In this document: in pieces, positions 1-60,500 of the stretch
Layout of the letters: every line of letters begins with the position of its first letter
Numbering within the stretch: position 1 is the first letter of the stretch
From: Candidatus Omnitrophota bacterium
Lineage (GTDB): Bacteria > Omnitrophota > Gorgyraeia > Duberdicusellales > 4484-171
Reading direction: 5' to 3'
Assembly: GCA_021735655.1 (NCBI GenBank)
Contig: JAIPGM010000001.1
Location: forward strand, 128,001-192,000
DNA: 64,000 nt
Notes under the pieces: generated by a model
Seen by the model: the letters and a program-made list of their open reading frames with translations, nothing else
Database searches by the model: none
Told to the model about the DNA's origin: nothing
Translations under genes and position numbers: made by a program

Positions 1-2
1 TG

Positions 3-15500: not shown

Positions 15501-18500
15501 TTGGAAGGAGCAGAATTTTCTCAAGTAGGTTGGCGTGGACGTCCGCTTGAGGATGTCATAAGAGATATGGCTGATGTAAGTCGTCAAGGAGCCAGATTTG
15601 TTAATTTCGTTGATGAAGATATTTTTGGTGGAGGCCTTGTACGGGTTATGGAGCTTGCCCAGAGAATTATTTTTGCTAAGGCACGAGGCGAGATTCATCC
15701 CGATTTAACCTTTGGCAGTTCAGCTAGCGTGAGATCAATCTATGTCCAACCAGAAGGTGATACTAAAGCTAGGGCTCAGATTGAAGCCGATAACGAGCTG
15801 AGGATAGAGGCACTTACAAGATTAAAACAAGCTGGCTTAGTGGTTTTATTTACAGGTATCGAGTCAGGTTCTCCTACTCAGCTTGCTCGATACGGAAAAG
15901 ATGCCACAGTATTTGAAAATGAAATGGCCTTACGGATAATCGATGAAGCAGGCATACACAATGTTCCTGGTTTTATTATGTTTGATCAAAAGGTCACAAT
16001 CGAGGAGCTGCGAGAGGATATTGCATTTTTACGAAGAACCGGGATGGATAAAAAAATTACCTATCCGCTTAGAACTTACTATCCTTTAAGGGGTGCTATG
16101 TGCACTGATCAACTGGTGGTAGATGGTCTTGTGGATGCAGAGCGATATAATGCAAGTCAGTTAGCCTATGAATACGTTTATGAGGATCAAGATGCTGCTA
16201 CTTTGTTGTGGGCTTTAAAATCTTGGGAAAAAAGCCAAATGCTATTCTTTTGGATTATTAAGATAATTTTTCGTTCTTCACGGTTTGGTGAGCTATCACC
16301 GGAGACACAAGCATTATTCAAAGAGGTTATGGCTGATCAAACTGTTATTTTACTTGATTATTTGGAAGATTTAGTTAATTGCTCATCAAGTTCTCAATAC
16401 CCAGAGATTGATCTTAGATATAGTGATAGATTAATAAATACCATGCTGTCTATTTTAGGCTTAATTAACGAAGGTCAGCTATCTATAGATGGCTCACATC
16501 TTTCGGAAGTTATTTACGGAAGCATAACCAGGGAAATCGTCCGTGTGCATCTTTTACATTTGCCATTTACTTTAAATGATATTTTTGAAATGGTAAAAGT
16601 AAGGTTTGGTGCTGAACTTAGTCTGCCTATGCTCAAGAGAGCTTTAAGCAGCTTTGTGAACGAGGGCGCTATGGAGTATTGTGAAGGCAGGTATTCATTA
16701 ACAGCTAAATTTTGGGATTTAAAAGGAATGCCTTATTATGATTTGCCAAGACCATACCGAGGAGGCGAATCTAACCTTGCTCAAGCGAGTTTACCAGTTC
16801 CACATCTTGATGTATTTAGGCAAAGAGCAGGCATTTTAGAGTTAGAGGTAGCTTATAACCAAGTCAGAGTTTTTGGGGAAGTATTATACGCTGCAGTTGG
16901 TTTTATCCTTTTTGCTATAGTTGGTGTTTTGATTATCCATACTTTGGCTGGAGGGTTTGTGGTTGGCTTTTTCGGATTAGTTATATTTGTTTATTTTTAT
17001 TCCAAATCGTTTCCTAAATCAAAATATAAAATAGTTGAGCAAGGGTTGAAAATGTTTAGTGGTCAAAGAATTGGTAGCCAAGATTTCATAAAACTATCTT
17101 TGGTGTTTAGGGACCTTTTAGCTGATGATTGCGATAATATAATAATACAACTTCTTGCTCGATCGGGAATCGAAGCAGCTAATGAGCTTGCCCAGAATAG
17201 GTACCTAGAGGAAACCTTGGGCGTGCAGTCTCCCCTTGATAATGGTAAAGATCCCTTTCTTACAGTCGATATTAGCCAATTGCCAGGAATGCTGTTAAAT
17301 AGAAATTATCAGAAAGCAATTGCAATATTTGAGAGCTTAGACGTTTTTAAAGACGGTGACGCTTTGAGAGACTTGCTTTCTGGCTTCAGGGAAATGTATG
17401 AAAATAATTACGATTTCAGGTCACGTCTTCTAGAATGTTTCATCCATTTATATGAAACCCAGCGCCAGCAGTGGTCTAAGGCCGAAAGAACCTTAAGGGT
17501 AATCTATGAACAGCAGACAGCTGAGGAAGATTTATCTTTGCTGTGGGTGAGGAAAATTGCCGTTGATATTTGGTCTGAGATTGCAAGTAGAGAGATAAAA
17601 CTTTCTGATGAACAAATGGTACCGGTTGAACAGGTAGGAGTTGATCTACAGGTAACTGAGGTCTGTTGCTATGAGTGTCCTTGGTGTTTATATCATCACA
17701 CGCCAAAAGGCCCGGCCCGGAGAAACCTTCACCGTTTAAGCGAAGCCGAGGCCGTAGACATAGTCAGTCAGTTTATGGAGGCAGAAACCTTTTCTTTGGC
17801 GCCGTTTAGTTTCACCGGCGGGGAACCTTCAATGAATCGGAAAGTTTTATTTGCTGCTCTTGAGGCAGCTACCCGACGTCAGCAAGCTGGATTTATTAAT
17901 GTATTTAGTAATGGTATTTGGGCTCGAGACGTAGAGGCTGCTGAGCGTATGCTAAACGCTCTTGCTGAGAAAGCAATCATCAGACTGGTTATCAATAGTG
18001 GGCTTTTGCCCGAAGGCCTTGAGCGGATTAAGCATATTGTTGACGCTTACGGCAGATTGGATAGTTCAATACAATACCGCATAGAACTTGGTATAGCCGT
18101 TCCTTTATTGGGCGATGAGATTATAACTTATCTTGAATCAGTGCGGCAAGCGCTTAAGGGAAAATTTCTTATTCAGCCGTCTAATGGCGCTATTACTGCC
18201 GTAGACATGTTTGAAATGTATCATTTAACAAATTGTAAGGTTGGTATTCAATTGTCTAATAGTCGTATTCTCATTATACATCCTGAATCGATTGCTATAA
18301 GTCATGCTAATAAGGGTCGCCTTGCTTTAAGAGAAAAGCAGATTGAAGCTTACCGGCTTAACCGCCCGGTTTGGTCGTCATGGCAAAGCAATGGGTCGCG
18401 CTATGTGCAATTTGTGGCGCAAAGTGACCTTTGGGTTTTAGCTAATCCTTTTTTCTGGGGCTATGGCAATCCTCGGCAGTGGAGTTTTGATTTTATGAAT

Positions 18501-21500
18501 GTTAGTCAGCTACATGAAGCCTATCAGCGTGATCCGCTTTGGCAGATGCTTTCAACTGTGCCAGCCGAGGAGATTATAGAACAAATGCGGCAGCTTTTTG
18601 TCACAGTCCCTCAGGGCGTTGATCGTTGGTTATCTGGTCTTCATGCGGTCCATCCGATTGCTAGCAGTTTTGCCGCTGAACTTTTACAGGATTCGCGCGT
18701 GCGTTATTGGCTAAGAAGATGGCATAGTGGTGATTCAGTTAATGAGCCATATCCGGAGTTATTGATGCCGGAATTAAGTCAAAAACAAAATTCACCTAAA
18801 TCAATTCCTTTGGATAACGGCCGAGTGCCTCTTGATAATGGTAAACCGTTCATGCAAAAGTTTAAACCTTCAGAAACTCTAGGCTATTCAGTGATTAACG
18901 GTCCTAGACATAGAGTGATGATTATTAATGTTTTGCCGCAAGATAAACAAGCTTCTTTAGAAACTCAAACTCAGAGCATAATTTCACAAGTAGATTCAGC
19001 CTTAGCTAGAGAGGGTTTTAATAATAGTGATGTGGTTAAACAGGATATGTTTTTACGTGATCCGAGCCAAAGACCCGAGGTTAAAGAAATGCTAGGTAAT
19101 TATTATGGAAGGGCGCCTCCGGCAACCAGTTTTATTCATCAGCCGCCGATAACCGGTGAGCTAGCTGCTACTGAATTGATTGTCATTAAGGGGGAGGGGG
19201 TCCAAGTCTACCGAGTAAATAAATATGCAACCTTAATTAATGCTGACGGACTTTGGATGCTTTATGTGGCTGGAATTGAACCGGATGCTAATTTAACTGA
19301 TACCTATCAGCAGGCCTATAATACTTTTTTAAAGTTACAGACTGTTTTAGAAGAAGTTAGGCTTGGCGCGGTAAGCTTTAAATTTGAAGATGTAATTAGA
19401 ACCTGGCTTTTTGAACGTGAGATAGTTGGTTTTGATGATCAAGAAAAAACTCAAGAGAGATATCAAAAGCTTAATCAAGCCCGACGCGTTTTATTTGATA
19501 CGGCTGATTCTGGATCAGGGGTTATTTTTGGCCGTCGTCTGCATTGTCCATCTTCTTGGCTTCTTTCCTGGCGAACGAGGATTGCTTTTTGGTTTTTAAA
19601 GTTTTCTTTTACTCATCGAATAAAGAAATTCGAAAAAATATTATTCAAATTAGCCCGAGTCAGGCCTCCGGCTTCAACCGGAATCGGTGCTTTGCCGGAA
19701 TTTCAAGCCCAAGGAATAAACGTTGCCATTGGTCCGGCTTTTGTTTTTGAAGCTTTAGCTTTGTTCGCTGAAAGTAATCGAGGCGATGTTTTAATTCAGT
19801 TTATTGAAAACCCCGAACAAACTCCGGCTCATGCTTATTCCAAAAAAGTATTACCCAAGGGAGAAAAGAAAAAGAAAAAAGCTTCCCCGGCTTTTAGCCG
19901 TGGTATGGCTGTATTTATGGATTACATTTGGATAATCATTTCTGGAACAGCTTCAGTTAAAGGTGAAAAGGTAGTCTCTGTTGGTGATGTAAGAGGTCAA
20001 GCTGAGACCACGATTGATAATTTAAGATTAGTAGTTGGTCAGGCTGGAGCCCAGTTAAAAGATATACCGCAATTAAGAGTGTATATCAAGAATTGGCAGG
20101 ATTATCAGACTGTAAGGTCGGTAGTTGAAAAGCATTTTCCCGATACTCCGGCCCTATATCTTTTGGCTGATGTCTGTCGGCCAGAGTGGTTAGTTGAAAT
20201 TGAAGCCATGGCTTTTATTCCTCGAGAAGAAGGGGTTTCTAAGCCTTTAGACAATGGTAAAAATAGAATTCGGCAAGGTGAGATCTGGTCTCCTCACCGT
20301 GGCTGGCGGGATCCAGCTCCCTTGCCGGATTATATATCTGTTCCGCTCGACAATGGCAAAAGAACTCTAGATTCATTGCCAACCAGACTCAGGGTTTTCT
20401 TAAGACTTAATAATATTGATCCAGCTAAAACTTATTTATTTGCCATGAGCGGCGGTGATTGTGCCGGGCCAAATTCAGCTTATTATGGTGCAGTTAGAGA
20501 GGCTGATAAATATGGTTATAAAGTATTAGGGGTGTTGAATGGTTTTGAAGGGTTAGGGGCTAATCCGGATTTATTCGTTGATCAACTTATTTATATTACT
20601 TCCGAAGGCATTGAGCGATTAAAAGGAATGCCGAGTATTCATGTTGGGTCTTCTCGGGCTAAATTTAAGGATAAACGCGAAAATATTTTAGTTAATTGCG
20701 CTGCTTTTGCCGGAGTAATTTTTGTTGTTGGTGATGACCATTCTAAGCAAACCGGCGAGCTAGCTGAAAGCGGCATAGCAACTATAGCTATTCCCAAAAC
20801 TATTGATTATGACTTTTTGGCGGAATCTTTAGGGTCACATAGTGCTATTTCTGAGGCCCGGCGACTTTACCTACGGGCTCATCGCATGGCCCAAGAGGAT
20901 CATTTTGTTCAAGTTATTGAATTTATGGGACGTGATGCTGGCTGGCTAACCTTTTTGGCAGCTCAGCAGGTTGCTGGAGCTAACTTTATTCTTCTCCCGG
21001 AAAAAAGCGCTGGCTTTAAGGATGTTTTAATTAAAGCTTTGTCAGTTATTTTAGAGGAAGGTTATTTGACTATCGCTATGGCTGAAGGTTATAGCTTTAG
21101 AGATTTCCAGGAAAAAGATCGTATCTTTGGAGGGCCGCTGTTTTATAAATTCTTAGATATTATACCGTTTCTTAAGGCTAAATTTTATTCTAAAGGCCAA
21201 ACCGATGTACATGGTAACCCCAAATTATCAGGAATAGCTGAGTACTTGTCTTTAGCTATTCGTTATTTGCCACGCTTGGCCAAGCATGATGCCGATATAA
21301 ATAGGCTTTATCAAGCGATTAAACTTAAGTACCCACATTATTTTGGTACTGACTTGCGTTATAAGGCTAAGGGCGAGGTAATGCAGAATGTTCGTTTATC
21401 GATTTTAGGCTATATTTTAAGAGGCCTTCCTTCAGATGATTACGATACTAGATTGGGAGAGGCTTATGGAAGAGCCGCAGTTAGGTTACTTCAGGCCGGA

Positions 21501-24500
21501 AAAAGCGGTTTAGAAGTTACAATTAGTAAAACTTGTACTTTGCGTTCATCTAGTTGGTTAAGAGCTATTCTTAGGGGGGAAGGGGTGAAAGCTGTTCCAA
21601 TAGTTGAGGTAGCCATAAAACAATATGTGGCTAAAAGCGATGATCCGGCTAAGGCGGCTATAGCTTTTCATCTTAGCGATAAGAAAATAGCTGAGGCCGG
21701 GGTTTGGTGGCAAGGCTCCCAAGAACTTATTACCCATAAAAGAGTAAGTCAGCTAGTCCGCGAAAAAGATTTAGGCCCGAGCCCGCGCGAACAGGCGCGC
21801 AGATCTCAATATAGCGCAGCTATTTCAGCAGCCATCCATACTACAACATCAATTTTCGGTTTTAGAAAGGTCGATGGTTTAGATTCAGATGATTTAGCTC
21901 TTTATGCTGGCGATCAAACTCCACGCGATAAGAGTTTGCTTCCGGGACATAAACAGTATTGCTTGGCTGAGACCAAAGGCAGTACCATGATTCTTTTAGC
22001 TAATCCTTTAGCGGAAGTTAGATCGCCTTATCTGCGTGATTTACTACTTGATATTTTAGGTAAGATGACTGAGCGTGTTAGTTTCATTGATGAAAGTACC
22101 CGAAGGCTTGTTCAACGTAAGATGCGTGGTTATGTTAATTTAGTAGTTTCCGATAAGTTTTTATTGAGAGATTTTACTGAATCGACAGATTTATTTTCAA
22201 AGCTCTTATCTTTAGATCCAGTATTAAAGGCTCGCTATGAGTTTAATCAGTATTTTTTCGATCACGGAACCCCGGGTTTTATGGAGCTAATGTGCACATT
22301 AGTTTCAGCAATTACTCACTTGCCACAACTAGCTCAAGGTGATCCAGAGTTAATTGATGCAGTTCAGAGACTTTATGCGAATCGACCAGAGGTGTTCGGT
22401 AAAGATCCTGAACGCAAAGGTGAACTTATCTTAAAAAGTTTACGCCTTAATATGCCCAATCAGGTTATCGGAAGGAAACCGACTCCTTTAAGAGAGGCTG
22501 ACCTGCGACGTAGCGGAGTTTGGCTAGGTCGTCAAAAGCCGCTTGATAACGGAAAAGCAAAAGTAGTTTTAAAGCCAGGAAATATGGATTACCATTTAAG
22601 TGTGGCGCGGAATACTCATTTTAGCAATGCTGCTTCCAAAATTGTTCCTTGTTTTTTAGATAATTTAGCTAAGGCTCAAATCAAAGGAATGCATAAAGAA
22701 ATTAGTGCGGTATTAGTCCATGACGATCAGGGGAATATTCCGATTTTTGCCTCGGCTGATCGGGCCAAGCTAGATGGTTTTGCAATTAATCATTCTTTGA
22801 TTGCTCAGGCTTCTGGTATTCAAGTAGATAGAGGTTTTGCTCGAATTGTGCTCTTTTTTAGAGTTGAAGATGAAAAAGCCGATAGTGTAGCCATATTTCC
22901 TAATTCTTTTATAGATAAAACTGAGTTACTTAGTAAAGATTTAGACATAGCTTTTAGAGCCAAAGCTAAATTATTCGGTGATTTTTCAAAAATTGCTTTG
23001 TTAATTAAGGAAGTCTTTCTCCAGATGGGTTATACTCCAGAGTATATTGACACGATTTGGCTTTCTAATTTTGATGGCGGGGCTTTCGGGTTTAGTAATC
23101 CACGGAAAAAAGTTAAGACCTTTGGCGATGCTTTAGCTTTGATTGAGTTGATGACTACCTTAGAGACACAGATACCTTTAGATAATGGTCGTAAGACAAA
23201 TGATGATCAAGCTAAATCAGAGGGTGTCAGCCGTCGCGATTTCGAGATTAGATCTCTTCTCGGTGGGCTTTGTGCCTTTTGTGGTGGAAGCTTGCCGGAG
23301 TTTGCCGGTGCTGCGGCTGGTTCAGCGGCAAGCCTATCGGAAATTCAAGCTAGACTTAAGGTAATGAAGTTATTTGAACAAGGAGTCAGAGATTTATTAA
23401 TTAATGGAGGTATAGTTGCTCGGCCAGCTTTTATCAGTCCAGCTGAGTGGGGTATTTTGAATTTTGATCTTTACCGTTTTAATTTAGTCCAAGTTATGGA
23501 TGATTGTGGTGGTTCTATGAATGCTGCCGAGCGGGTTGCTCAAGGGGTTAGAGACTTTGCCCAATACGTTAATGATCCGCGACTACAAAGATATTTTTCA
23601 CAGCAAGCTCGAGAGAAATTAGTTCAGCAGAGAAAGGATAACAGCCAAATTAGAAGAGAAATAGCTGATATCAAGATTTTACTTGAAATAGCTCGAGACG
23701 CCTACCATCACATGAGTTCGCCGGTAGATTTACCGGGAATAGTTAAGCAATTAGAATTTGAGTTATTTCTTAAAAGAGGGCAAGTCGGTTTTAATTCGGC
23801 TAGTGTTAAGTTGGAAGCTTTGTTGGTAGATAAAAATGATGAGCCTTTGGATAACGGAAGAACTATTGACCAGCAAAAAACTATTCTAAGGGAGCAGGTA
23901 CCGAGTCTTAGCGATAGAGCTCACTCAGCTAAACTCGCCGCAATTTATTCAAATCGTTTAAATGCTAAATTATCTGACAAAGGTTGGGGTATGCCCGGTG
24001 ATCTTAGGTTAGTTAAGGGAATAACCCTAACCGTAAACAGAGTTATTGCTCCTTGTTATGAGCTGTTTTTAAATATTATGCGTCACGGAAGGGGTGGAGA
24101 ATTTAAGGCGGATTATCGTCAAGGTTGGCTGGGTGAAAAAGAATTAACGGTTGTTGGTTTTGACCAGGGTTTGGGTATTGCTAATCCGGATCAGCTTTTC
24201 GCTGATAAGTTAGAGCTACTAGCTATTGCTGAAGATACAGCTGATTTAGACAAGAGGGAATTAAGTCGAGGAATTGTTCATATCGTGCTTGATCCGGACA
24301 GCGTGATGCTTGAAACCAGAGGCATAAGGTGGGCTAGGTCAATATTAGATGTTGAAGTTCGTTCAGGATTGTTTATGCCGGTAGTTACTTTGCAGCCGAG
24401 AGGCAAAAGTGAGGTTAATAAAGGTTTACGTTGGACTTTGGGATGGAAGAGGCAAGCCAGTCCTTTAGACAACGGCAGACAATCTCTGATTCCGGCTTTA

Positions 24501-27500: not shown

Positions 27501-30500
27501 ACCTTTATTGAGAATATAGCTAAAATTCAGAGTACTATAATTTCAGAGATAATGAGAAGGTTAATTCAAGTTGATGAGCGGCTCGATCAGTTACTTGAAC
27601 AAATTGAACAAGAAGGTTCAGAAGTTAGCCAAATTTTAACTGAGCTATCTGAGGTATTTTCTGATATATATGGTTTACATTTTGAAGTTTGTATAACTAC
27701 AGCTAGTCGTTATCTTACAAAAGGTAACGATTTAGTTAAGGAAATATTTCAATATTTTCTTGATAGATTAGATGAGGCGAAACCGCTTGATAATGGCCGA
27801 AGACCTAGGCGGCGTTCAGATAAAGGTGAAAGTAAGTGGGATATTTTAGATCGGTTTAGCCAAAAACTCAGAACTGTGGATACGGAAGTATTAGCGGACG
27901 TAGACCAACAAAGAAGCATTGGAGCTAAGAGAAGAATTTTAACTAGAATCGGTATAGATGAAGCTAGCCAATTAGACGGAGCTTTCTTGCTAGGCGCAGT
28001 TAGCAAAGCCTTAAAGCGCCAGGTTGGAAATTTAAGCCATGATTCAAGCCCGATTACCGTAACTGAGCCGCTTATTTATGCTGGAGTTGGTCGTTTTCTA
28101 ATTTGCTATAAAGATGAAAATATTGACGATGGCCTAGCAGTTAAAATTGCTAGCAGCGAAGCTTCTTTGCGTAATGCTGATCTTTATTCTTTAAACGGAG
28201 TCCGCATCGCCATTAATCGTTTAGGCACAGGCTTAGCTGCCAGCACAATGATTATTGATGCCCGTTGGCCAGAGGTTAGGTCTTTTGTTTTTAACGTTAT
28301 TGATCAAGCTGGACATCCTAGAAGGATTGAAACTCAAATCGCTATCGTCCAACAAAAAGTTTTACCGTTAATTGAGTATTTAAAACGTTTAGGTCGTCGA
28401 GGCTCTAAGGACCAAGATGTATTAAAGGCAATTACCTATGTTGATAAGTTTAAACAGCTTATAATTGCTATGTATAAACAAGGGGTTATTGATGATGATA
28501 CTTTTAATATTGTGGGAAATTACGGGATATTAAAGGTTAATGATAGTATTGTAATTTTTGATCTCGGTGATCTTTCTGATTCAGCTGATCGAGCTGCAGG
28601 TTTTGTTAGAAATTTAGATAGCTACAACCAACAGATGTTTGAAGCCTTTTTAGAAATAGACGGTGTTTTCCTTGATGAACGGATTGCCGATTATTTTATA
28701 AATAACCCGTTAAAAAGAGAAGATTTTATTTCTGGCCAAGGAGATCTATTCGGATCCGAATACGATCGGGAAAGTTCAAGAATGGTTTTCCCTTACGATG
28801 AGGAAACAGTAAGGATGTGGGGGGTTCGGGCTTTTGATTTAGTAAGCCCCGATACAGAGGCTAGCCAGCAACCACTCAATAATGGAAAAGCTAGGACTAT
28901 TTCTCGTTTTGAACAAGAAACTAGAACTGAGCCTTATCTTGTTCCTGAAGCTGAAGGCGTTGTATATCAAGCAGTGGCTAAATTTTTTAGAGCTAATGGA
29001 GATAGCCAGACATTTAGAGTTCTAGATCTTTTCAGTGGAGCCCATACCTATATACCGACCTTGAACCAAGTTCAGGTTGAAGAGTGTATTGGCGTAGGCA
29101 TAAGGGCGCAAGAGTTAGAATTGAATCCTAACTTAAAAGGTAACCCTAGCTACTTAGTTTTAGATTTAAATCAGGATAAGTTGCCTGAGCAGTGGAATCA
29201 GCGTTTTGATTTAGTCTTAGTGGTTAACGGGGTAGCTTACGTTGAGGATCATTTCAGATTATTTGCTGAGGCTGCAACTGTGACTAGACTCGGTGGCAGA
29301 TTATTAGTTGTTTTTACTACTGAAGCCTATTCTACCGAGATTTCAAAAACTTGGAAATATTTAGGTAGCGGTTCTTTAGGCCAGAGAAATAAAATTAGAC
29401 ATATTAGTGAATCAATAGCTAGAGTTCGCCAGTTTGGGCCTGTTGCCCATGGACATTTTACTTATACCATTCAACATGGCTTAGATATTTATGATAAGCC
29501 TTTAGAAATCATTACTGCGGTCAGAAAGAGTAGTGCTATTCCGCTCGATAACGGTAAAGTGCGTTTGCCGATAAGTCCTTTGAGGTTAGCTTCGTTAGTA
29601 ATAGTTCCCTGGTTTGCTATCGGATTATCGATTTATTTTGGTGATTGGTACGTTGATACAGTTAAATCATCGGATTTAAACGCAATGTTAGTTAAAGGGT
29701 TTTTAGGTGGTCTAGCTTGTGGTTTTGGGATGTATGTAAAGCAGACAATTAGTGGCCAAACCCTGAGCCGTAAAAATTTCGGAAAGATACTTCGTTGGAC
29801 TTTAGCCGGATCAATATATTTAGGTTTAATTGTTTTTGGTGCCTGGTATGGATTTTTGAAAGCTAATGTTCCCAGTGATGTTTGGAAGGTTATTTTAGAT
29901 ATAACTTTATTTTCAGCTTTCATCGGTTTACCGCTAAACTATTTAATTCAAAGATATATTGTTGACTATGACAGCTACCGTAAAAAAACAATTAAAAAGC
30001 ATATTGTTAATTATCTACGTCTTTGGATTTTTAATGCCAGCTGGTGGGGATTTTGGTTAGGCCTTTCTTGGTCACTTTGGCCGGATAGTATCGACCTTAT
30101 TGTGGCCAATGTAAGGATTATTTGGTCCGGCATATTTATTTATTATCTTAGTGAGTGGGTTGAATCTGGTTCAAGTAGTCTACAAGCGTCATCTAAACCA
30201 CTCGATAACGGCCATCAACCGCGTAAAATTATTTGGATTAATTTTGGTGGTTGGCGCGGCTATTGGTTTGCGGCAACCGGCATTGAAACTTTAGCCGGTT
30301 TTATTGAGAAAAATTATTCCGGCGAGTTAGAGCAGGAAGTTTTTTATTATAACCCTAGCCAGATTACTCAATTTAGCGAGCATCTAAGTCAGGCCTCAGC
30401 TGATTTTATTTGTTTTTCAGTTAATCCGATGTATTTTGATTTGGCTATGGATTTTGCTCAAGAGATTCAAGCTAGTTTAGAGGCTTCACCTAACACGAGA

Positions 30501-33500
30501 TTAGTTTTTGGTAACCGGGGAATATCTGGCAAGGAAGCAGCAATCCTAAAAGCTTTTCCTGAAGCTTTAGTAGTAACCAACGAAGGTGAAGAAGCTATGC
30601 TGGGAATTGTTAAAGGCGACGCCCGAGAGTCAATTCCTAATCTTTGGTATGTTGATCAAAACGGAGAAGCTAAATTTACTTATCCTCAGGTACTTTCGGC
30701 AGCTGATTACGTGGCTCCTTCTAAAAATATTCGCAAGATCAATGAACAGCCGCTTCCTTGGTATCAGGATGTTGGCTTTGTTGAGGGAACTCGTGATTGT
30801 TCAAAAGCTAGTTCGCGGCCTTGCACTTTTTGTGTGCATAGTTGTCGTCGAGCTCAGATACCAAAAAATCAATGGCGCTTGCTTAATGTTGCTGAGACTT
30901 TAAAGAGTATCGAGGCAGAAGTTAATTCCGGTAAAAGTACAATCAACATTGTAGCTGAAGATTTATTGGGTAGCGATCCAAAGCAAGTAGAACTTTTATT
31001 TTCCGGGATTAGGCAACTAAAGCGAAGCGGACGTATACCTAGGACAACTACCTTTTATGCTTCAATTATGACTTATCACATTTATCGTCGGGCTGATTCT
31101 TTATGGAGTAAATTTAAAAAGATATTGCGGCTTATCCGTATGCGCCGCCTCGGGTTTACTACGGTTTTTGTTGGTTTTGAGAGTGGTTCTGATCCTCAAC
31201 TTAAGCGTTACAATAAGGCTGTATCGGCCTTTGAGACTAGAATGGCTATTCGGATATTGCTTTGGCTCGGGTTTCATATTGATGGTGGTTTTATTAATTT
31301 TGACCCTTTAATGAGCCTGGATGATTGCTTGACTAATGTAGCTTTCTTGCGTTTAGCTAAGGTGCCTAAATTATTATTGTTTCCGTTTAATCAGCTAATT
31401 GTATTTCCTAATACCGCTTATGCTAAGTTAGCTGGGAGACGCCAGCCGGAACCAGTTGTTCAAAGGCTACTTAACTGTATAGCTAGAGTTAATCAAGAGA
31501 TACCTTATTTTCAGTTTGAGATATTCTTGCAACGTTTGCGCTTAGCTTATTTTGCCGGGACTGATAAGGCTAGTATTCGAGAATATGAACAAATTCTTTA
31601 TCGTTATGGCAATCTTTGTTTAGATTTTATCGAACAGATTGTAGTAGCTCTAAAGAGAGGCGCAAGCGATTCTGAACTAGAGACTTTAACCGATCAATTC
31701 CTAAATAGACACAGGCAGTTTATTGATAATTTTTATATTTGGGCTCGGGTTAGGGCACCGGAGATGTTTGAGCGAACCATGTATGCGGTTCGGCCGCAAT
31801 CCAGCGAAAGAGCCGGTTATGTGCCGGGTTTTAGTTTTTGCGATCTTGAGCAGTATGGTTCTTTAAATGTTCCTTCTGGCCCTGCGGAAAGTCTGATTGA
31901 TATTGAGCCTTATGTTGACGATCGAATTCCTCAAGAAATACCCTTAGCAGTAGCCCAAGGCCAAGCGGCAATTGAAATCCATTGTGGATTAGTTGTTGAC
32001 ACTAATACTTTACTTGGGCAATGGCGAGCTCAAGGAGCCACAGTTAGTGAGCTTTCAGTAGGGGTGGCCAATCTTAAAGAAAGCTGGTATGTAGTAAATC
32101 GAGAAAGTGGTGTCACCTATGTTTTAAGACGAGTCCAAGGCAAGACTCGCCTTAATCATTATTTGGCGATGTTGAAATATTTGGGTGTGCCGCGTGAAAA
32201 AATATTTGTCCGAGATTTTAAAACTGCTTACCGAACTATTTATCAGAATAATTTAGCTGATTTAGCCGGCAAGCTCACCCAGTGTGTATTTAGTTTTAAT
32301 CTCACTGAACGCTTGGAAGATCTTCAGGCAGTTTATCCGGCAGCAACCGTAAGGGAAGTTCAGGTTGATGGTTTTCATCATGCGGTTATTACCTTTAGCC
32401 GAGATAACCAAATTCTTTTAATTGATCTTAGTGATGCCTACGGAAGTCAAATTGCTCAAGTTCTTGACTTTGTAGTTAGCCCTCTCGAACAAGGTGGCTT
32501 AGCTATAGAAAGAGTTTTATTTTTAGGAGCCTGTGGAGCAGTAGCTGATAATATTGCTTTAAATGATGCAGTTATAATGCAGGGTTTAATTGATGATGAT
32601 CCTCAGGCAGTTGGTTTTCCGGTTAACCAAGTTGACGCTGATCGACTTTTTAGCTATTTAAATTTAAGTTATGAAGATTTTAACGACATGATTCATACAG
32701 TAGGCGCTCGGGGAGCGCATTCTGAAGGTTTATGTTGTCAGACCACTGCTAATCTTGCTGATTGGCAAGCTCGCGGAGCTGATTTTGTTGAAATGGAGCT
32801 ATTGCCTATTATTGAAGTATTAAGAAATTACTGGCATGTTCAGTTGGAAGTAATTCTCCAAGTTACCGATCTTTTAGGCCGTGAGAAAGAATATCAATTG
32901 GGTCAAGGGGTGCCAGCTGCCGCTGAAGCTAGGAGAGCAGCTCGTTTCCGAAAGGCGATTGCTTTATATTTAGTTGGTAATTTAAAGCCAAAAGTTACTG
33001 TAAATGCTAGTCGAAACTTTAGCCTTGACGCTGTTCCTTTGGATAACGGAAAAAGCGAAAAAACTAGTCCAATCGTGCGAGCTCCGCCTTTAGATAATGG
33101 CAAGCAAAGCAAATCTCACCCGGCAGTAATTAGCGAATATGAGGTTTCACGGTTTGTGGCTAAAATAGCTCAAACCCGTCGTCAGGAGATGAGGGTAAAT
33201 ATTCGCTCTAGCTTAGGCCTTGAGTCTTTTATTAGTTTAGTTAAGGGGGAGCGTCTTGAAGCCCTTAGAGAAAAAGTTATAAATTTACATCAATCCGGTG
33301 TTAGGAAGATAGTTTTGATGAACGCTACTGAATCTGGTGGTGGCGTTGCCGAGATGATGCATGATATTGTTTCAGTTATGTGCAGCGCTGGAATGGCTGC
33401 TGAGTGGGTTGTTATGGATGGCCACAGTGCTTTCTTTAATGTAACTGTGCATATTCATGAAGGACTTCAGTCGCCAGCCAAGGAAGATATTTCTTTAGAG

Positions 33501-36500
33501 GAAATAGCTTTGTTTGACGAAGCCAGTATCGGAAATTTTGAACGCCTTGAGCAGGATGGTTACTTTGATGGACTTGATTTATTTTTTGCCGAAGACCCTC
33601 AGATAGTCGGTCTAATACCATTGATCAGGGCTTTTTATCCAGAGGTTCATCTTGCTTGGCGTTGTCATATTGACACCTCTACTCCTAATCGTCAAATTGC
33701 CGAATTTGTTAGCGATATGGTTAGCGGCCGTCTTGATCCAGTACGGGATAAATTACTCTATGACTATCTTTTAAAGCGTTTAATGAGAGAGGGTATGATT
33801 GGAGCAGCAGTTGATTTTGAACAAATGATGCAGGCTAATTCCCTTTCGGTTAATCTTGCCCAAGTTGCGACTAGAAGATTGTTGGCCGATATAGCTATTT
33901 ATCACACCGAAGAATTTGCTTTAGGATTACATCTCCAAACTAAAGGCGTGCCAACCTTTATTATGCCTCCGGCAATTAACCCTTTTAGTTATAAAAATAT
34001 TCCCCTAGCTGATAATTTTATTCGGGCAACTATGGTTAAATATGGTTTAGATCCCAATAAATTTACGGTTGTTGAAATATCACGTTTCGATCCTTTTAAG
34101 GGGCCGCTGGAGGCCATTCAGGCTTTTGTGCGTTTATTTTTGGATAATCCGGGATTGCAGAATGATTTACAATTTGTTTATGCCGGAAATATGGCTGACG
34201 ATAACCCTAAGGGAAAACGCGATTTTGAAAAGATCGATGCCTATTCTCGCTATCTTAGAAAGAAATTTCCTAAACTTAGGAAAGCCTTGTTTTTGCTCGG
34301 TCTTGGGAATAAACCCGGGACAGTAGCCTTAAATTGGGCCCAGAGACGCAGCTTGCGTGTTGGTGGTCAGTTTGCTCGGCCATTTTCTCGGAAAGAGATA
34401 GGTCGACTCAACGGTGTTGAGATAAATGCTCTTGAGGTTAATGCTTTACAGCAACAACTTGAGATGGAAAAAAGAGACGGTAGGTTAGTTATTTCTTTAC
34501 CGCGTAAAATAGCAATACAGCCTTCATCAAAAGAAGGTTTTGGCTTAGTGGCGGCTGAGGCTACCGGAAAAGGTACTCTGGTTATCGCTTCTTTGATCGG
34601 TGGCCTTAAAGCGCAATTAAAGGATTTGCTTGCGCAAGCTTCTTGGTTGGGCATTAACTATACGCCGGAGGAAATTAGTCAATCTTTAGAGGTGTATGAC
34701 TCAATGGATTCTGATCAGCATAGAGGTGTTGTTTTCGATGTGGCTTATTTGGAAAGAATTAATTTATATCAACGGCTTAATCAACGAGAATTCGTTTTGG
34801 GTTTAGCTACCTCTCTGCGGGTGGCTTACGAACTGGCTCATAAAAATCCAGATGTCTATCGAGAGCTCGGTTTAGCTGCACGTTGCCAGACTTTAGATAA
34901 GTTTATTACTCTAGCTAATGTTGAGAACCGCTTAGCCGCCGCTTCCTTGATTGTTGATAATCAGCAGCCCTTGGATAATGGTAAGCCAGAAGTTCCGATG
35001 CCTTCTTCTTATTGGATCGATCATAGCCTTCTTCATGAAATTGATAATGTTTGGGCTAACTTGGATTGGATTAATCCCGGGCCAAGTTTAAGCATAGCTC
35101 GCCAGATTGAGAAAAATTTTAAGCCAGCACAAGAGCCAGGTTTTTTAAGAGTTAGCATAGATGCCTTTGGTCCGCTTAACGGATTTAAAAATCAAGTATT
35201 AGCTGAACATGAGCAGTATTTTGATTCCGAGGTTTATAAAGATTATCGAGCTGGCATAATTCATGCTATTGATAATCTTTGGCAACACGGCGGAAAGTAC
35301 GGTGCCTTATTTTTGATGGCTCAGCTTAGAGGACGAACCGTACGCTTTACTTATTGTTTGCTAGATCGCGGTGATGGTTTTATTAATGACGATTACAACC
35401 ATGTTCGTTTAGAAGAAGCCGTTCAGGCACATAGAACATTTAAACGAGCCGGCAAGAATGGTATGGGCCTTTATTATATGGCGATAAAGCCGGATTATTT
35501 TTCAATCACCGCGGTTAATTGCTACCGGGCTGTTGCCACAACTCAAGCTCACTATTGGGAAACTGGCTACACTAAAGAATGGCCGTTTTGCCCGCAACAA
35601 ACTCCGGTTAACAAGGGGGTGCGGGTGATTTCGGTAAAGGATGTAGCTTTAGGCCTTTTGCCATTTTCGAATATGCAGCCGTTAGATAATGGCCGTCGAA
35701 CTGATGAAGAACGCCTGGATTTTATCGGATTTTTAGTTGAGTCATATTTAGAGGCTTTATTTACTTTCCGGAGGTTAAGAGCAAATAACAGCGAAGTAGC
35801 CGAGATGTATCTGCCAGCAATTTCCGAAACTGCCGTTAGAAAGAAACGAGCCAAATGGGTAGTTACAGCTGTTGAGGTTGCCCGTGAGGCATTTCAGGTT
35901 ATGGCTCGAGCTGATTTTCGACATTCATCCGGCTTAACCATTCGTTCAATCTTTGATTCAATTTTGGCTTCTGGCGGTCGCAACCAAGCAGCTAATGATC
36001 TAGGAGTCGATCGCGCTAGCCTTACTCGCTGGATGCATAGCTTACCTAATGATTTATTAGGTGGGTTAGATCCAGAATTAGCAGTCTTCAAACAAAGAAT
36101 CCTTGATTTATTTGATGAAAACAATACTCGACCCCTAGACAACGGTAAAGAAAATATAGATTTATTAGCGGTTACAGCAGTTAAAAGAGAGGACACCTCA
36201 CCGTGGCTGGCGGGCCCTCTCTCTGCTGTAGCCCCTATATATATAGGTAAACAGCAGGGGCCGCTAGATAACGGCCGAGCGCCTTTGGATAATGGCCAGC
36301 CAGCTAACTTTTGGAAAGTTTTGCATTCTGGTATATACGTACTTCCGATATATTACACTCGACTTTTCGATACAGCTAAAGACGCAGGAATTGGAAAATA
36401 TACTTATGTAGTGCCGTTTGTTCGTGATCATGTATTGTCTTTAGGCCATCAAGCGATACTTTTCTTACCGTTTTCTTTGCAGTTACCTTGGTCGCAATCT

Positions 36501-54500: not shown

Positions 54501-57500
54501 AGCATTTCGGATTTCATGGCCCATATGTTTGGGATTAAGGCAACTGGGATTGAGGTTTGGGAGCCATATTATCATTACGCAGTTTTCTTAAGAGATGAAG
54601 CAGTAAGAAGAAGATTCATTCCAGAAGGTAAAGTAGATTTTTTAAATAATAATTTAGTAGATGTTGATTTTTCAAAGTATTCTTTAGTGTACTACGCTGC
54701 TCTTGGCACAAGAAGAAAAAGTGAGCTGGCTGCTAGATTGCTTGGGGTAAGAGAAAAATCCAGGATATTAATTCGGGGTTCACCTGATGAGTTAGTGGAA
54801 GGGATTATCGCATCACATCCTGATTTTAGCTTAAGGAAGCTTGAGATAGAAGTTAATGAAAACCTTACTGGAATTAAGGCAAGGGTTTATACTCGAGAGA
54901 CAATTACCAGTTACCAGCCGGTTCTCGACGTTCCTCTAGATAATGGCCGAAAAAATAACCCTCAGATGGTCAGAGCGCGCTTAGCCGCATTTGAAAAATC
55001 AATCGAGGGCATCGTGCCTAGGGCAGATCCGCTTTATGACCATTTAATTCGTTTTTATCAATATCCTTTGAATAATTTGGGTGAACCTGACGAAGAGACC
55101 TATGTAAGGAATAATACCAAGGAGCAGGAGCGGGAGCTTCTTAGATTCTGGGCCGGCCATTTCGGCCTTCCTAAAAATTACGGCGGTCATGTGACTATCG
55201 GAATCGGTCAGGCTGAATATTATGCCATGTACGTGGCTAGCAATCGATTTCCCAAGGCTATATTTTATATTTCTAATCAGGTCGATAGCCTTCTTTATGA
55301 TACTTTACAGGTGTTGGGCATTGATCAAGGAAGAATAAAGTTAATTAGGTCTTTAGAGAATGGCGAGATCGACTATGGTGATTTAAAGAGAAAGATTAGG
55401 GAGAATTCATCATGGCCGGCGGTGGTCTGCTTGACTGCTGGCAGATTCCTGGGGGCGGTTGATGATTTAGGAAAAGTGGAAGGAATTTTAGGGAGCCTGG
55501 GCCTAAAGCATAAACATATTCATTGCAGCATGTCACCGTTAAGTATAGGCCAGTCGTTTTTGGAAGATGCGGCAAAGATAGATTTTCAACATGGCTTAGA
55601 TAGCATGAGTCTACCGTTGTATCATTTTGTAAGGTGTCCGATGCCAGGAGTCATCGTTCTTACCAGAAGGAAATACCTTCAGAACATTGCTTGTAGTCAA
55701 AAAGCAGCTGAGTATGTTAACTCTAACGACACCACTAATTCTGGATCACGTAGTGGTCATGCTCCGCTTTATCTTTGGTTTGCTACAAAAGTTATTGGGA
55801 CTAAAGGATTTAAGGCTCAGGCTGAGCGGGCCAGGGAAGTTTGTGTTTCTATTAAAGCTCTATTTGACCGTTACGGTTATCCTTGCCGGTTCACCGCGCA
55901 AAAAAATACAATAATCTTTGAGCCACCATTTTATGAGTTGCGTCAAAAATGGGGCTTATTATCACACGGGCAATGGTCCTGTTTTGAGATTGTACCTTAT
56001 TTGACCCCGGTTGAGATAGCCGAATTTGTAAGTGATCTTTTAGGTGATCATTCTCAAGCGGTAGCCGCCCCGGTAGAAACCGTATTTCCGGAACGGATTG
56101 TCTATGAACCGTCTCCGGAAGTCTTAGATGTTTTGGATCAATTAGAAGCAAGGATCCAAATTTTGATGGAAAGATTTTTAGGATTTCCGGCAAATATCGC
56201 CGGCAATGAGACATCTTTTGCTGCCTTGAGCAGCTTGTTTAAATACACCTTGAGAAAAAAGGATGTGGAAGGTTTTCGACACGAAGCCTTGAAATTTTTT
56301 ACTGATCTTTACGGTTTAAGGTACGAAGATTTTTACTGCGGCATAACTGCTGGAGGAACCTGGGGAAATCGGGTTGGCCTATTAGTTGGCCGGGAAAATT
56401 TTCCCGGCGGGATACTTTATTACAGTCAGGATTCGCACTACTCGATTGATAAAGTGGCCAGGAGCCTTAACATGGAAGTAAGAAAGGTCGCCTCTTTGTC
56501 TAACGGCCAAATTGATTATGATGAATTAGCCGAAGCCATAGAGGAAAATCGTGGCCGCCCGGTAATTGTAAATCTTAACATCGGCACAACTATGAAAGGC
56601 GCTATCGATAATCCCCAAAGAGTTATTGAAATATTAAGAGAACAGGATGTTACTGATTACTATATCCATTGTGATGCCGCGCTTTTTGGTATGATTTTAC
56701 CGTTTCTCGAGGCTGCGCCAAAAATTGATCTGGCTAACGGCGTCCATAGTATTGCCATATCCGGACATAAATTTCTCGGCCTACCGATGCCTTCGGGCAT
56801 ATTCATGGTTCGGAAAAATTGTGCTAGGGATAGATTGATAACTATTTCGGATCGATTATTGACTGCCCAAACTGGCCATGTCATTTTGTATTTTTGGCAG
56901 GCTGTTGCTAGCCGAGGGTATGAGGGTTGCAGAGAAGAAGCTATGGCTTGTGTGGATAATGCCCAATATCTTTATTACAGATTACAGGAAAGGGGATTGC
57001 CTTCGGAGGTAAACCCTTTTTCCAATATAACAATGTTTTCCCGGCCATCGGGTAGCCTAATTGACACTTGGCAGTTAGCGCCTTGCGGGGACCGCGTCCA
57101 CGTAGTGGCCATGCAGCATGTTACCAGAGATAAGATTGATGCTTTTGTCCAAGAGTTAACTAGGGATATGCAGCAAGGGCAGATAGAACTAGCTAGTTCT
57201 ATGCAGCCTCTTGATAATGGTAGACGGCGCAAAGCATCGCTAGTGCCAGAGGTAGGCCTTGATGAATTAGTTGAAAAACATTTAGGAAACTTGAAGTTGA
57301 TATCTTCTGAGTATGGAAAAAGCGTAGGCATGTTATCTACTATTTTAAGACGACCAGACAATGAGAGCCTTCAACAAAGAGCAGAGGAGTTGAGGAAGAT
57401 TGGTCCTGGCCGTCTGGCCTTAGCAGCTGACTTAGGCGAATTCGGAGTAGATAGTTTGAAAATTGGTCAGAAGTATGGCGTTGGCCGAAGAACAGCGGCT

Positions 57501-60500
57501 AGTTGGCTTGTTAATAATGGATTTGGCGATAGGGTTAATAGCGCTAGATATAGTCGAAGTAGAACATTAAGACGTCAAAAAATAGCTCAGGAATATGAGC
57601 CGATTGCTCGCTTATTAGATGGTGAAGGCAATCTTTTACAGACATTTTATACCCATATTTCTTGGAAAGAGGTATCTGCTTATCCTTTCGCTGTTTTAGA
57701 TGAATTAGAAATCCAAGCTACCGAAGTTTTAAGTTATGGTGGTAAGCAATGGGGTCAGTTTAAGGGGCATGCTGGCCATAGAGCTCGGATAACATTGGAG
57801 TGGGGCTATCCAATAGAAGTTGCTATGTCTAGCAAAAGAGGAGTTGATCAAGGTAGCTATAGAGCCATGCAGCTTAGGACCTATCAGTCAACTCTTTTTG
57901 ATAGAGAGGGGGAACTCTTAGATACTGCTTTTTTCGTTTTTGGTTACGATGAAGATTTATGTCGGGGAACAACAAAAGTTGTTAACTATCAATTAACCAA
58001 GGCTGGAAGAATTAGTATTTTTGGTGATGAACAAATACAGCTAATAAAACATAAACAAGCCTGGGCTAATTTAGTTGCAGTGGATGGAAAGGTGGTCAGG
58101 GCTACCATTCTTGATAGAGAGGGCGGGAATGAGGTTATTACTTATAATTTTTCTCGAGTGTATGATGAAAACAACCGAGTAATTTACACTTTTACTGGAG
58201 GTTTAGAGTTTAAGCAAAGCAGTGTGCCGCCTGCGTTGTTGAAATCTTTAGCTAGAGGAAGAATTGAAGGTATTTACCTAAAAGGTGGTCGTGGCAACTT
58301 AACTATTGGCGGCAGAACTTGGGTTGTTTTAAGTGACTATAAAAATTATCCATGTAGGGCTTATATTGAAGAAGGGCTTGTGGTCAGAGTAGAGGTTTTA
58401 GGTGAAGAAGGAGAGGCTGTTTTTACCAAGCATTCTCACCGCCTTTATGATAGAGAAGATAACTTTGTCGAAGTATTTTATGATTCTATTTCACCAGAGC
58501 GACTTAACCAGGTTGGTTTGTGTCGTAGCAGTCCACTTATTGTGACTCCTTCAGGAGAGTTATGCTTATCTGGAAATCGTTATACTTTTGAAAATGAAGG
58601 CGGCTCTAAGGCTATTGTTTGGATTGAACCCGGAGTTAAGTTCACCAGAAATAGAAAGCCGGATGGTAAAGCAGTTAGAATTGATTTTTATGATCAATAT
58701 ATGCATTATAAGCATACCCGTTATGCAGTCAGAATCTATGAAGATGAAGGAGTTTTAATTGATACTTTTTTTGGTCCAGGATATGCTGAGAAGCTAAAGA
58801 TTTTTGGTGATGTAATTGGCTTTGCTCAACTCGATACGTTAGGTTCTCTTAATATTGGCTACACAACCCATACCTTTACTAAATATGGTGACCCTCGACA
58901 TTTTGTTAGATTTAGTCTACACCAGGCTCAAGTTCTGGATGTAGATGTTCTTGGCCATGACTATTGTCATATCGATAGAGTTGGCTTTGACGCTTGGCCT
59001 GATATGGCTATCGATCACTTTGAAATGGCCCGAATTGTTGATGAGCAGGATCAGCTATTACACACTTTTTGGTACGGTGTTTATTCAGAACGGATTCCCA
59101 ATAGAGGTAGAGCTAGAATTTTAGGGGCGACTTTTACTGCCGGAGGTCACCTGCGACTTGGTAACGAAGATGTTTATCATGATGCGAACTTTCCCGAAGC
59201 TAGAGTAAATGTTACTTATATTGACGGAGAAGTAAGTGAGATATTAATTTATCAGGATGCTCAAGGCAACTCAGTAAATTATCATTATACTAAAAAGCAG
59301 ATAGATAATTATAAGCGCAGAGTGCAATATTATAATCTGCGCGGTCATGTATTCGAGCATGCTTTAAGAGTTGCCTTACCTTTTTTAAGCGACTGCCCTT
59401 TTGATTATCAAAAGCGCATTGGTGGTGAAGTTGATGGGTGGGTTGATGGTGAAGCTGAACCAAAGCCAGCTGATTCCAGATCACTTAAACGTCCAGATTT
59501 TACTAGTCCTTTTAGCTGGGCAATGAGTGAAGGGGTATTGTGCTATATTGATGCTAAATTCAATCTTAGAATTAAGTTTTTAATAGAATATCTAGAGGCA
59601 ATTAAAGAGACTTTAAGAACTGATTATTTTACTGATTGTGATGCCCCAGTTGAAACACATTTTGTAGGAAGAGTTATATTTGAGATAGTTTATTTAGGCA
59701 GAGTAAGTGAAGCTAATGTAGAGGCAAAGTTAGCTGGTCATCAGAGAAATTTTTCAGCTACCAATTCTGAGATGCTCACCTTGAAACCAGTTAGCTTTCT
59801 TGATGAGTACGGAGATAGGCTTAAGACCGCTGGTCAGGATACTTTAGTAAGGTTTCTGAGACATCTGAGAGTTTTTCATTATAAGCCAGGTCGCAAGAAA
59901 GCCTTAGATAGCTATTTAGCCCAATTAGAACAGGATAAAATTCCCGAGATAGCCGATGAGCAGACTAATCTTTTTTCAAGGCCGCTGGATAATGGCCGAG
60001 AAAGATTATTGGTTAGTAGCGGTAATAGTCATTTAAAAAGTTTTCGTGAGGCGAAAGGTTTATTAGCAAAATTAAAATGTACAGACATTTTTGGGGTTGT
60101 CATGGGTTATCGCGCTGCCTTAGCTGATAGAGATAATTATCAGAGAGTATTTGCTCGTGATTCTGTTTGGATGGGGTTAGCCGAAATGCTTTCCGGCTGT
60201 AAAGGTAGTTTAGCTTTAACATTAAGCGTATTAAAACATCATCAATGTCGGTACGGACAGAGACGCGGGGCTATTCCGAGTAACATTTCAAGGTATCATC
60301 GGGTAAGTTATGGGACAACTAGCCCAAGAATTGATCCAACCCTTCTTTATATTGTTAGTTCTGGCCAATATTATCGGTCCAGACCAGCCTATTTTCAAAA
60401 ACAGTTTCTCGTTGAAAATTTATCGCCGCTACAAAAAGCTATAGCATATTTAGAAAGACAATGGGTTATGGATAACGGTTTATTGTTTATTCCGATTGCC

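Follow-up and report, generated by a model that had tools for sequence, protein, structure and literature searches.

In this study, we analyzed a stretch of 64,000 nucleotides (hereafter, the window) from a Candidatus Omnitrophota bacterium (assembly GCA_021735655.1, contig JAIPGM010000001.1, positions 128,001 to 192,000), which is almost wholly occupied by one plus-strand open reading frame (ORF) whose enzyme-like modules are separated by the pentapeptide PLDNG. One of these modules, at positions 54948–57206, consists of two fused and diverged copies (half 1 and half 2) of an enzyme related to histidine decarboxylase (HDC) and serine decarboxylase (SerDC). The two halves are homologous, they have lost residues in a reciprocal manner, this pattern is conserved in relatives and both halves are under purifying selection. 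We consider it likely that the module is a group II (fold type I) pyridoxal phosphate (PLP)-dependent amino-acid decarboxylase in the form of an intramolecular pseudo-dimer, in which the halves together build one composite active site.

The module corresponds exactly to the 753 residues between two PLDNG motifs that were located by motif scan (54933–54947 and 57207–57221, each followed by Arg; these and all features described below are on the plus strand). Half 1 covers module residues 1–376 (54948–56075) and half 2 covers residues 377–753 (56076–57206). Between them lies a connector of ∼20 residues (56055–56114), which was assigned as coil at residues 370–389 by DSSP on the AlphaFold2 (AF2) model; it was present in all relatives, with a 5-residue indel among homologs, and contained no PLDNG-like motif. 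Since neither PLDNG nor a one-mismatch variant could be found by the motif scan anywhere inside 54948–57206, a hidden degenerate linker between the halves was ruled out.

The original prediction, which was made from the sequence alone, had described two tandem HDC-like domains in this region, and both halves indeed matched the NCBIfam HDC profile NF002748: half 1 (54948–56090) with E=2.3e-57 and 194 bits over profile positions 35–375 of 382, and half 2 with E=4.7e-94 and 315 bits over positions 62–375. The cutoff of this profile is 305 bits, which half 2 just exceeded and under which half 1 remained. Pfam PF00282, with which a comparison of the halves had been suggested, reported half 2 alone (E=1.4e-25, 90 bits versus a cutoff of 27). 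The best matches among solved structures were the same for both halves (E=6e-40 for half 1 and 2e-72 for half 2), namely plant SerDC and alanine decarboxylase (AlaDC) (8JG7, 8JIK and 8JIJ) and Photobacterium HDC (7ERU/7ERV). The halves could also be aligned to each other from end to end (25% identity, E=5e-29), which is far beyond chance. Within the group II PLP decarboxylases, it is the histidine/serine decarboxylase branch to which both halves are homologous; an unrelated first half, the possibility that had been raised against a tandem pair, was not what the alignments revealed.

Half 1 has lost the residues that bind PLP. BLAST, HMMER and MAFFT all paired SLPLYHF of half 1 with ISGHKF of half 2, which places His226 (codon CAT, 55623–55625) opposite Lys608, the predicted Schiff-base Lys of the S-G-H-K motif, and Tyr225 opposite His607. 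The codon of Lys608 is AAA at 56769–56771, as had been stated before, and this Lys was invariant in all homologs; the relatives of half 1 have Arg, Arg, Ser, Ala or Glu at the corresponding position. Thus, the PLP Lys of the upstream copy is lost as originally claimed, and the accompanying wording that Tyr stands in place of Lys was off by one residue in register. Half 1 has also lost the Asp facing the pyridine nitrogen (HCD changed to HCS), the PLP-stacking His (DSHYS changed to VDSLL), the Thr of NIGTT (TAGRF instead) and the LG[Y/F]PxN motif, which is kept in half 2. Its glycine loop is degraded, again as described previously (TIGIGQAEY versus TAGGTWGN). Judging from these residues, half 1 appears unable to form a PLP Schiff base.

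On the other hand, half 1 has kept the elements that act in trans. Its catalytic loop (55686–55751, residues 247–268, containing Glu255-Tyr256 and Gly266-Ser267-Arg268) aligns to loop 328–341 of AtSerDC, including Tyr341, and to Tyr336 and Ser347' of CsAlaDC. It reads AEYVNSNDTTNSGSRSGH where the AtSerDC reference reads VEYLASRDATIMGSRNGH, the two loops being of equal length, and keeps both the loop Tyr (Tyr256) and the phosphate-binding Ser (Ser267). Half 1 also contains the segment PLNNLGEPDEETYVRNNTKEQERELLR (55065–55145, residues 40–66) with a conserved NNxG[D/E]P...E block that is deleted or degenerate in half 2. This NNxGDP...FE block precedes the large domain, adjoins dimer-interface positions 110–122 of CsAlaDC and is kept in half 1 as PLNNLGEPDEETYVRNNTKEQERELL.

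In half 2 the situation is reversed. Its PLP pocket is present (SGHK608, HCD576AA, SH497YS, NIGTT and GGTWGN), whereas its loop reads DRLITISDRLLTAQTGH, in which Tyr has been replaced by Arg and Ser by Ala (in the HMMER alignment the reference loop has Tyr at K+27 and Ser at K+38, counted from the Lys). This loop was 6 residues shorter than that of AtSerDC in the pairwise HMMER alignment, and the NNxGDP...FE segment was absent from half 2. The earlier statement that the downstream copy has every group II decarboxylase block is therefore incorrect: the loop Tyr, the Ser of GS(R) and NNxGDP...FE are missing, and the otherwise invariant Glu of GGTEGN is replaced by Trp. It was reported that the loop Tyr (Tyr341 in AtSerDC and Tyr336 in CsAlaDC) is the proton donor and is essential, since Y-to-F mutants have no activity, and that a Ser contributed by the neighboring subunit (Ser347) forms a hydrogen bond with the PLP phosphate (PMC11407765). 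In the canonical family, the catalytic-loop Tyr and Ser are present in every subunit; in the module, this feature is found only when the two halves are taken together. The losses are reciprocal, and the halves jointly hold one complete complement of catalytic residues except for the Glu of GGTEGN. The picture of a dead paralog fused to a live enzyme was thus right with respect to fused, diverged paralogs of which the upstream one lacks the Schiff base, and wrong in taking the downstream one to be complete.

Such a pattern would be expected if an active site normally shared between subunits had been divided between the halves. In a canonical homodimer of this family, each of the two sites is composed of the PLP pocket of one subunit and the mobile loop (with Tyr and Ser) and a pocket segment of the other. 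In the module, an old tandem duplication would have come first and the reciprocal loss afterwards, such that the C-terminal half keeps the PLP pocket (Lys608, Asp576, His497, the Thr of NIGTT and the Gly loop) and the N-terminal half would supply the loop (Tyr256 and Ser267), the NNLGEP...E segment and, probably, some of the wall of the substrate pocket. The halves may then fold together like a canonical dimer, producing one composite site, made of the C-half pocket and the N-half loop, and one vestigial site, and each half would be inactive alone. The expected chemistry would be alpha-decarboxylation of a small amino acid, and the residues described above suggest catalytic activity on a substrate of the His/Ser/Ala-decarboxylase type. 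As to which amino acid this may be, the nearest characterized relatives act on Ser, Ala and His, half 2 has FPA at the YPx specificity position and the HDC cutoff was barely passed. The whole unit would later have been recruited into the giant multi-enzyme ORF, and, being recruited whole, would be flanked rather than split by PLDNG delimiters.

To better understand the distribution of this architecture, we searched for relatives of the tandem. A word-index search identified three Omnitrophota proteins matching over the whole tandem with 59–62% identity: P0001 (923 residues), P0002 (1213 residues, a stand-alone protein among ordinary genes in GCA_043798375.1) and P0003 (partial). The closest named homologs of the module were from Omnitrophota/Omnitrophica metagenome-assembled genomes (MAGs) at this same identity. 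An exhaustive phmmer search of 1.84 billion representatives yielded three further, more distant proteins with the complete tandem, namely P0013 (759 residues, from a Tara Oceans scaffold, 36% identical), P0014 (1028 residues) and P0015 (762 residues, 30% identical, from data of the sea louse Caligus rogercresseyi). A metagenome scan with the half 1 alignment added three more (L006, L007 and L008), in which the tandem is part of much longer ORFs (4670, 4365 and at least 3620 residues, respectively). When genome contigs were scanned with half 1, a single match was obtained, in Dehalococcoidia (32%), and a scan of metagenome contigs at the level of exact DNA gave no match. In total, the tandem organization together with the reciprocal loss was found in 10 tandem proteins from independent assemblies, ranging from 62% down to 30% identity, and the Tyr/Ser loop of half 1 was conserved in nine of them, down to 36% identity. 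The tandem proteins were annotated in their sources as either ‘histidine decarboxylase’ or ‘hypothetical’.

Between the Omnitrophota orthologs and the window, half 1 was 58–62% identical and half 2 was 65% identical. We also measured the ratio of nonsynonymous to synonymous substitution rates (dN/dS) between L006 and L007, which was 0.118 for half 1 and 0.154 for half 2; thus, purifying selection on half 1 is at least as strong as that on half 2. A decaying duplicate was ruled out as an account of half 1 by this low ratio (0.12), by the ortholog identity of 58–62% and by motifs kept down to 30% identity. Likewise, an assembly or frameshift artefact was ruled out because the tandem was found again in 10 independent assemblies. 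It should be noted that one further protein (P0016) was left out, which contained an exact internal repeat of a normal HDC and is probably such an artefact.

Some of the relatives had features of their own. The tandem decarboxylase of Caligus rogercresseyi (P0015, P0161 and P0162) appeared in the sea louse transcriptome, and a partial match was located on a 35.8-Mb genome scaffold; it could be the result of contamination, a symbiont or horizontal transfer. The N-termini of P0001, P0002 and P0014 were hydrophobic and resembled a signal peptide or transmembrane helix, the N-terminal region of P0002 appeared by eye to be similar to the N-terminus of the 4670-residue L006 ORF, and a transmembrane-like stretch was observed just upstream of the decarboxylase unit in L006 (2909–3500). 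These features hint at a membrane-anchored or exported location. In addition, just upstream of P0001 on a JGI contig (L002, 1231–5664), and overlapping it by 23 nucleotides in another frame, there is a gene for 1477 residues that had a Pfam intein-splicing match and contained no xLDNG motif.

The AF2 model of the module had a mean predicted local distance difference test (pLDDT) value of 81.6 and a predicted TM-score (pTM) of 0.84. Low confidence was restricted to residues 43–54 (in the NNLGEP segment), residues 247–268 (the half 1 loop), residues 415–419 and the C-terminus; a low pLDDT of the half 1 catalytic loop is as expected for a mobile loop. In the model, the two halves of one chain are predicted to pair with each other, which would bring Tyr256 close to Lys608. 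When the model was compared with the Protein Data Bank by Foldseek, single-domain matches were SerDC, AlaDC and HDC, with a query TM-score (TMq) of 0.45 and a target TM-score (TMt) of 0.81–0.87 over ∼380 columns, and full-length matches (∼860–900 columns, TMq 0.68–0.71, 11–14% identity) were fused P-proteins of glycine decarboxylase (GLDC), including those from human (6I33-6I35), Synechocystis (4LGL/4LHC/4LHD) and E. coli (9UZ6). Superposition on 6i33_A covered 664 residues at 3.3 Å. Both the pTM and this superposition on the fused P-protein, which extends across the two halves of the module, agree with the original proposal that an obligate heterodimer is encoded in cis.

P-protein (GcvP/GLDC, or GcvPA/GcvPB in the split form, 1WYT) shares with the module a Lys-less N-terminal half and a Lys-bearing C-terminal half of the same fold, which in the module are predicted to pack as a pseudo-dimer as well. 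GLDC has been considered an unusual fold type I PLP enzyme, as others are homodimers of identical subunits: it occurs either as one chain of more than 1000 residues or in the form of an alpha-beta heterodimer, and its two halves are homologous to each other, the C-terminal one having Lys754 where the N-terminal one has Gln at the matching position (PMC7259800). However, the module does not belong to this family by sequence, given only a faint match of NF001696 (GcvPA) on half 2 (E=0.019). It is also shorter (∼750 residues versus ∼950), and there was no sign of an H-protein or lipoamide partner for it. Because the halves are much closer to HDC and SerDC than to P-protein, the duplication appears to be independent and the architecture convergent. 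With HDC, SerDC and AlaDC (AtSerDC 8JG7, CsAlaDC 8JIK/8JIJ and HDC 7ERU/7ERV), both halves have fold and family in common. These enzymes are symmetric homodimers of ∼370–480-residue chains with two complete active sites, whereas the halves of the module are fused, only 25% identical and have lost complementary half-sites. Another likeness may be seen in prozyme-type activators, such as trypanosomatid AdoMetDC/prozyme, the deoxyhypusine synthase heteromers and the ODC antizyme inhibitor. There, as would be the case in the module, an impaired paralog is needed as the partner of a catalytic paralog; unlike in the module, the partners are separate polypeptides of other folds or families, and the impaired one is not known to supply a catalytic residue missing from the live copy in the manner proposed for half 1.

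Several observations weigh against an intramolecular pseudo-dimer with one composite site. In one of the ten tandem proteins, P0015, the Tyr of half 1 is apparently missing. That the NNxGDP segment acts in trans is our assumption, presumably holding by analogy with other group II decarboxylases. The arrangement of the halves relative to each other is a prediction, for which AF2 was given an alignment of 12 sequences with 4 tandem rows, and head-to-tail pairing between chains would fit the same sequence pattern. Finally, the Glu of GGTEGN, which in half 2 is replaced by Trp or Phe across the tandem family, has been listed as conserved in each of eight decarboxylases that were compared (PMC11407765).

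Different explanations for the tandem should therefore be considered. If half 2 were a complete and self-sufficient decarboxylase that homodimerizes with another chain, half 1 would be a regulatory, localizing or stabilizing appendage, which corresponds to the original picture of a dead copy beside a live one. Half 2 scores over the HDC equivalog cutoff (315 versus 305 bits) and has all of the PLP-pocket residues, of which half 1 has none. However, it lacks both the trans-acting Ser and the loop Tyr whose mutation to Phe inactivates the reference enzymes, and thus a half 2 homodimer would have no proton donor; moreover, half 1 retains the Tyr/Ser elements in nine of the ten relatives and is paired with half 2 in the AF2 model. 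We regard this explanation as unlikely. Even less likely, in our opinion, is an intermolecular head-to-tail arrangement, in which half 1 of one chain would join half 2 of another to form domain-swapped dimers or polymers. Pairing in cis or in trans would leave the same pattern in the sequence, fused P-protein itself forms higher-order homodimers (PMC7259800), and contacts between chains are conceivable for a module that sits in a giant multi-module chain; nevertheless, AF2 joined the halves of one chain with a pTM of 0.84 and in a manner matching the intrachain arrangement of P-protein, and the ∼20-residue connector is present in all relatives.

Catalysis itself could also be questioned, as the whole tandem might be a non-catalytic pseudoenzyme that acts as a ligand-binding or structural unit, its motifs reflecting folding constraints. 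The change of the GGTEGN Glu in the whole tandem family, the relative without the half 1 Tyr and the weak Pfam matches of many other modules in the ORF would all agree with this possibility. But the full catalytic set (Lys, Asp, His, Thr and the phosphate loop, together with the trans-acting Tyr and Ser) was found in nine of the ten proteins, down to 36% identity, and would be hard to account for without catalysis; dN/dS values were 0.12–0.15. Of the three alternatives, a non-catalytic tandem seems to us the least probable, and the module appears to be best explained by pairing of its halves within one chain to form a pseudo-dimer with a single composite site.

In the searchable literature, no prior description of a tandem group II decarboxylase pseudo-dimer could be found. 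The fused pseudo-dimer in the HDC/SerDC branch looks like a second, independent origin of this architecture beside P-protein. If so, an ordinary enzyme family would have reached an architecture that apparently arose independently of P-protein, and the clean reciprocal loss would offer a simple and testable case of how a symmetric homodimer could become an obligate single-site heterodimer by duplication and fusion. There may also be a consequence for annotation: Pfam detects half 2 alone, and this seemingly ‘live’ copy would, according to our prediction, have no activity without its partner.

The host of the module is a giant ORF at 3–63038, the start of which lies off the window (it was listed as 9–63038) and the stop codon of which is at 63036–63038, corresponding to at least 21,009 residues. 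Its first Pfam match (PCMT, window 1–515) starts at profile position 80, that is, the domain is truncated, and the protein therefore extends upstream of the window and exceeds 21,009 residues. In a Pfam scan, the ORF was tiled by ∼20 distinct families; examples are PCMT, guanylate kinase, GlpX FBPase, glycogen phosphorylase, B12-radical-SAM (two modules), RidA, PFK, PNP_UDP, TreT, GH77, GT2, Bac_transf, ELFV_dehydrog (Glu/Leu/Phe/Val dehydrogenase domain), GH100 and GT1, and many of the modules matched their own families weakly. Giant Omnitrophota proteins of class 1, named ‘multi-enzyme metabolic cluster’, have been defined as having at least 10,000 residues and many distinct Pfam families with none dominating (Nielsen & Lui 2026, bioRxiv 10.64898/2026.06.07.730766). 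The present ORF fits this class in both size and Pfam tiling, with families of sugar metabolism and methyltransferases as well as radical SAM among its modules. That study did not report a linker, a motif or a cleavage site, and neither PLDNG[K/R] nor the tandem decarboxylase was described there.

The PLDNG punctuation of the host ORF is a more striking feature than the tandem decarboxylase. Exact PLDNG occurred at 58 sites (window 516–62819), versus 0.016 expected from composition, and K or R immediately followed it at 51 of them. Four additional sites (2376, 28872, 39534 and 53082) were one-residue variants, PLNNGK at three and PFDNGR at one. Among the copies, all five codons of the motif varied synonymously, and the flanks were not conserved. 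Thus, PLDNG is conserved as a peptide and not as DNA, and a DNA-level repeat as its source could be ruled out. The motif does not stand at every domain boundary: B12-binding and radical-SAM domains share one PLDNG-bounded module (14814–17231), and so do TreT_GT1 and GT1 (33087–34967). PLDNG delimits protein-level units, not individual domains. The earlier observation that the linker is missing between the decarboxylase halves and is not inserted at every domain boundary is therefore correct.

The special logic within the giant gene that had been read into this absence is not needed, since the unit already exists in proteins without PLDNG. The tandem occurs in proteins of 923 and 1213 residues, in stand-alone proteins of ∼760 residues and in the 4365- and 4670-residue ORFs, all of which are without PLDNG; furthermore, no xLDNG motif was found in L006, L007 or L008. 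It follows that the tandem entered the giant ORF as one gene-equivalent, and there is no internal PLDNG because it was recruited whole as an older gene-equivalent. Another relative, P0009 (KKF80 MAG), has Ser/Pro-rich linkers with SLDNG or ASADNG before its decarboxylase copy. Residues 335–560 of P0009 are related to module 32 of the window (34968–35678; 29% identity, E=4e-28); in P0009 this relative precedes the decarboxylase by ∼250 residues and is separated from it by a P-loop-like module, and in the window module 32 is ∼6,400 residues away from the decarboxylase. The order of modules is not conserved between genomes. In giant Omnitrophota proteins, modules thus behave as portable gene-equivalents, the tandem being found with different neighbors in hosts of 923 to more than 21,000 residues, and PLDNG in this lineage delimits portable units rather than single domains.

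From its sequence, PLDNG[K/R] looks like a peptide-level processing or recognition site. It is conceivable, though we put it forward tentatively, that it serves to cut a precursor of more than 21,000 residues into ∼50 separate enzymes, in which case the tandem decarboxylase would be one released product of a bacterial polyprotein. With similar reservation, units that need to stay joined, such as the decarboxylase pseudo-dimer and a tandem PFK-like module (see below), may be those not split by PLDNG. If this were true, the giant ‘multi-enzyme’ genes of Omnitrophota would be operon-equivalents made as single polypeptides, and PLDNG would supply the cleavage points of giant proteins, which have been stated as unknown (West-Roberts et al. 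2023). A literature search for the PLDNG motif returned nothing relevant, and no literature on Omnitrophota in connection with a polyprotein was found. PLDNG contains Asn-Gly, and no other sequence forms isoaspartate as readily, a damage that is repaired by PCMT. A link between this Asn-Gly and the PCMT (protein isoaspartate methyltransferase) module of the same ORF is pure speculation.

Some very short modules were also observed in the ORF. Two mini-modules of 43 residues with PLDNG on both sides (4473–4601 and 36132–36260) were 81% identical to each other, and the word-index search found no relatives of the mini-module with its PLDNG flanks. Other PLDNG-bounded ‘modules’ were as short as 7–33 residues, and a doubled delimiter, PLDNGR[V/A]PLDNG, was present at three sites (14793–14828, 18807–18842 and 36261–36296).

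Self-similarity within modules was computed by BLAST between masked fragments. A second tandem pair within one PLDNG-bounded module was found in module 19 (20343–22538), the first half of which matched Pfam PFK (E=1.3e-35) and the second half of which had no Pfam match; residues 240–364 were similar to residues 596–714 (E=4e-12), which recalls the duplicated layout of eukaryotic-type PFK. Module 54 (57207–59981), which lies directly downstream of the decarboxylase, has 925 residues, no Pfam match and a weak internal repeat (residues 228–338 versus 608–719, E=2e-4). The two B12-binding/radical-SAM-like modules (14814–17231 and 30198–33035) are paralogs, with 26% identity over 389 residues (E=4e-26). 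Forty nucleotides past the stop codon of the giant ORF, a separate gene starts (63079–63999) that continues beyond the window end; the N-terminus of its product resembles a signal peptide and is accompanied by an extracellular solute-binding domain of family 5 (SBP_bac_5, E=1e-48). Finally, GC skew was positive in all 2-kb bins of the window (1–64000; 0.09–0.21), and the GC content was ∼40%.

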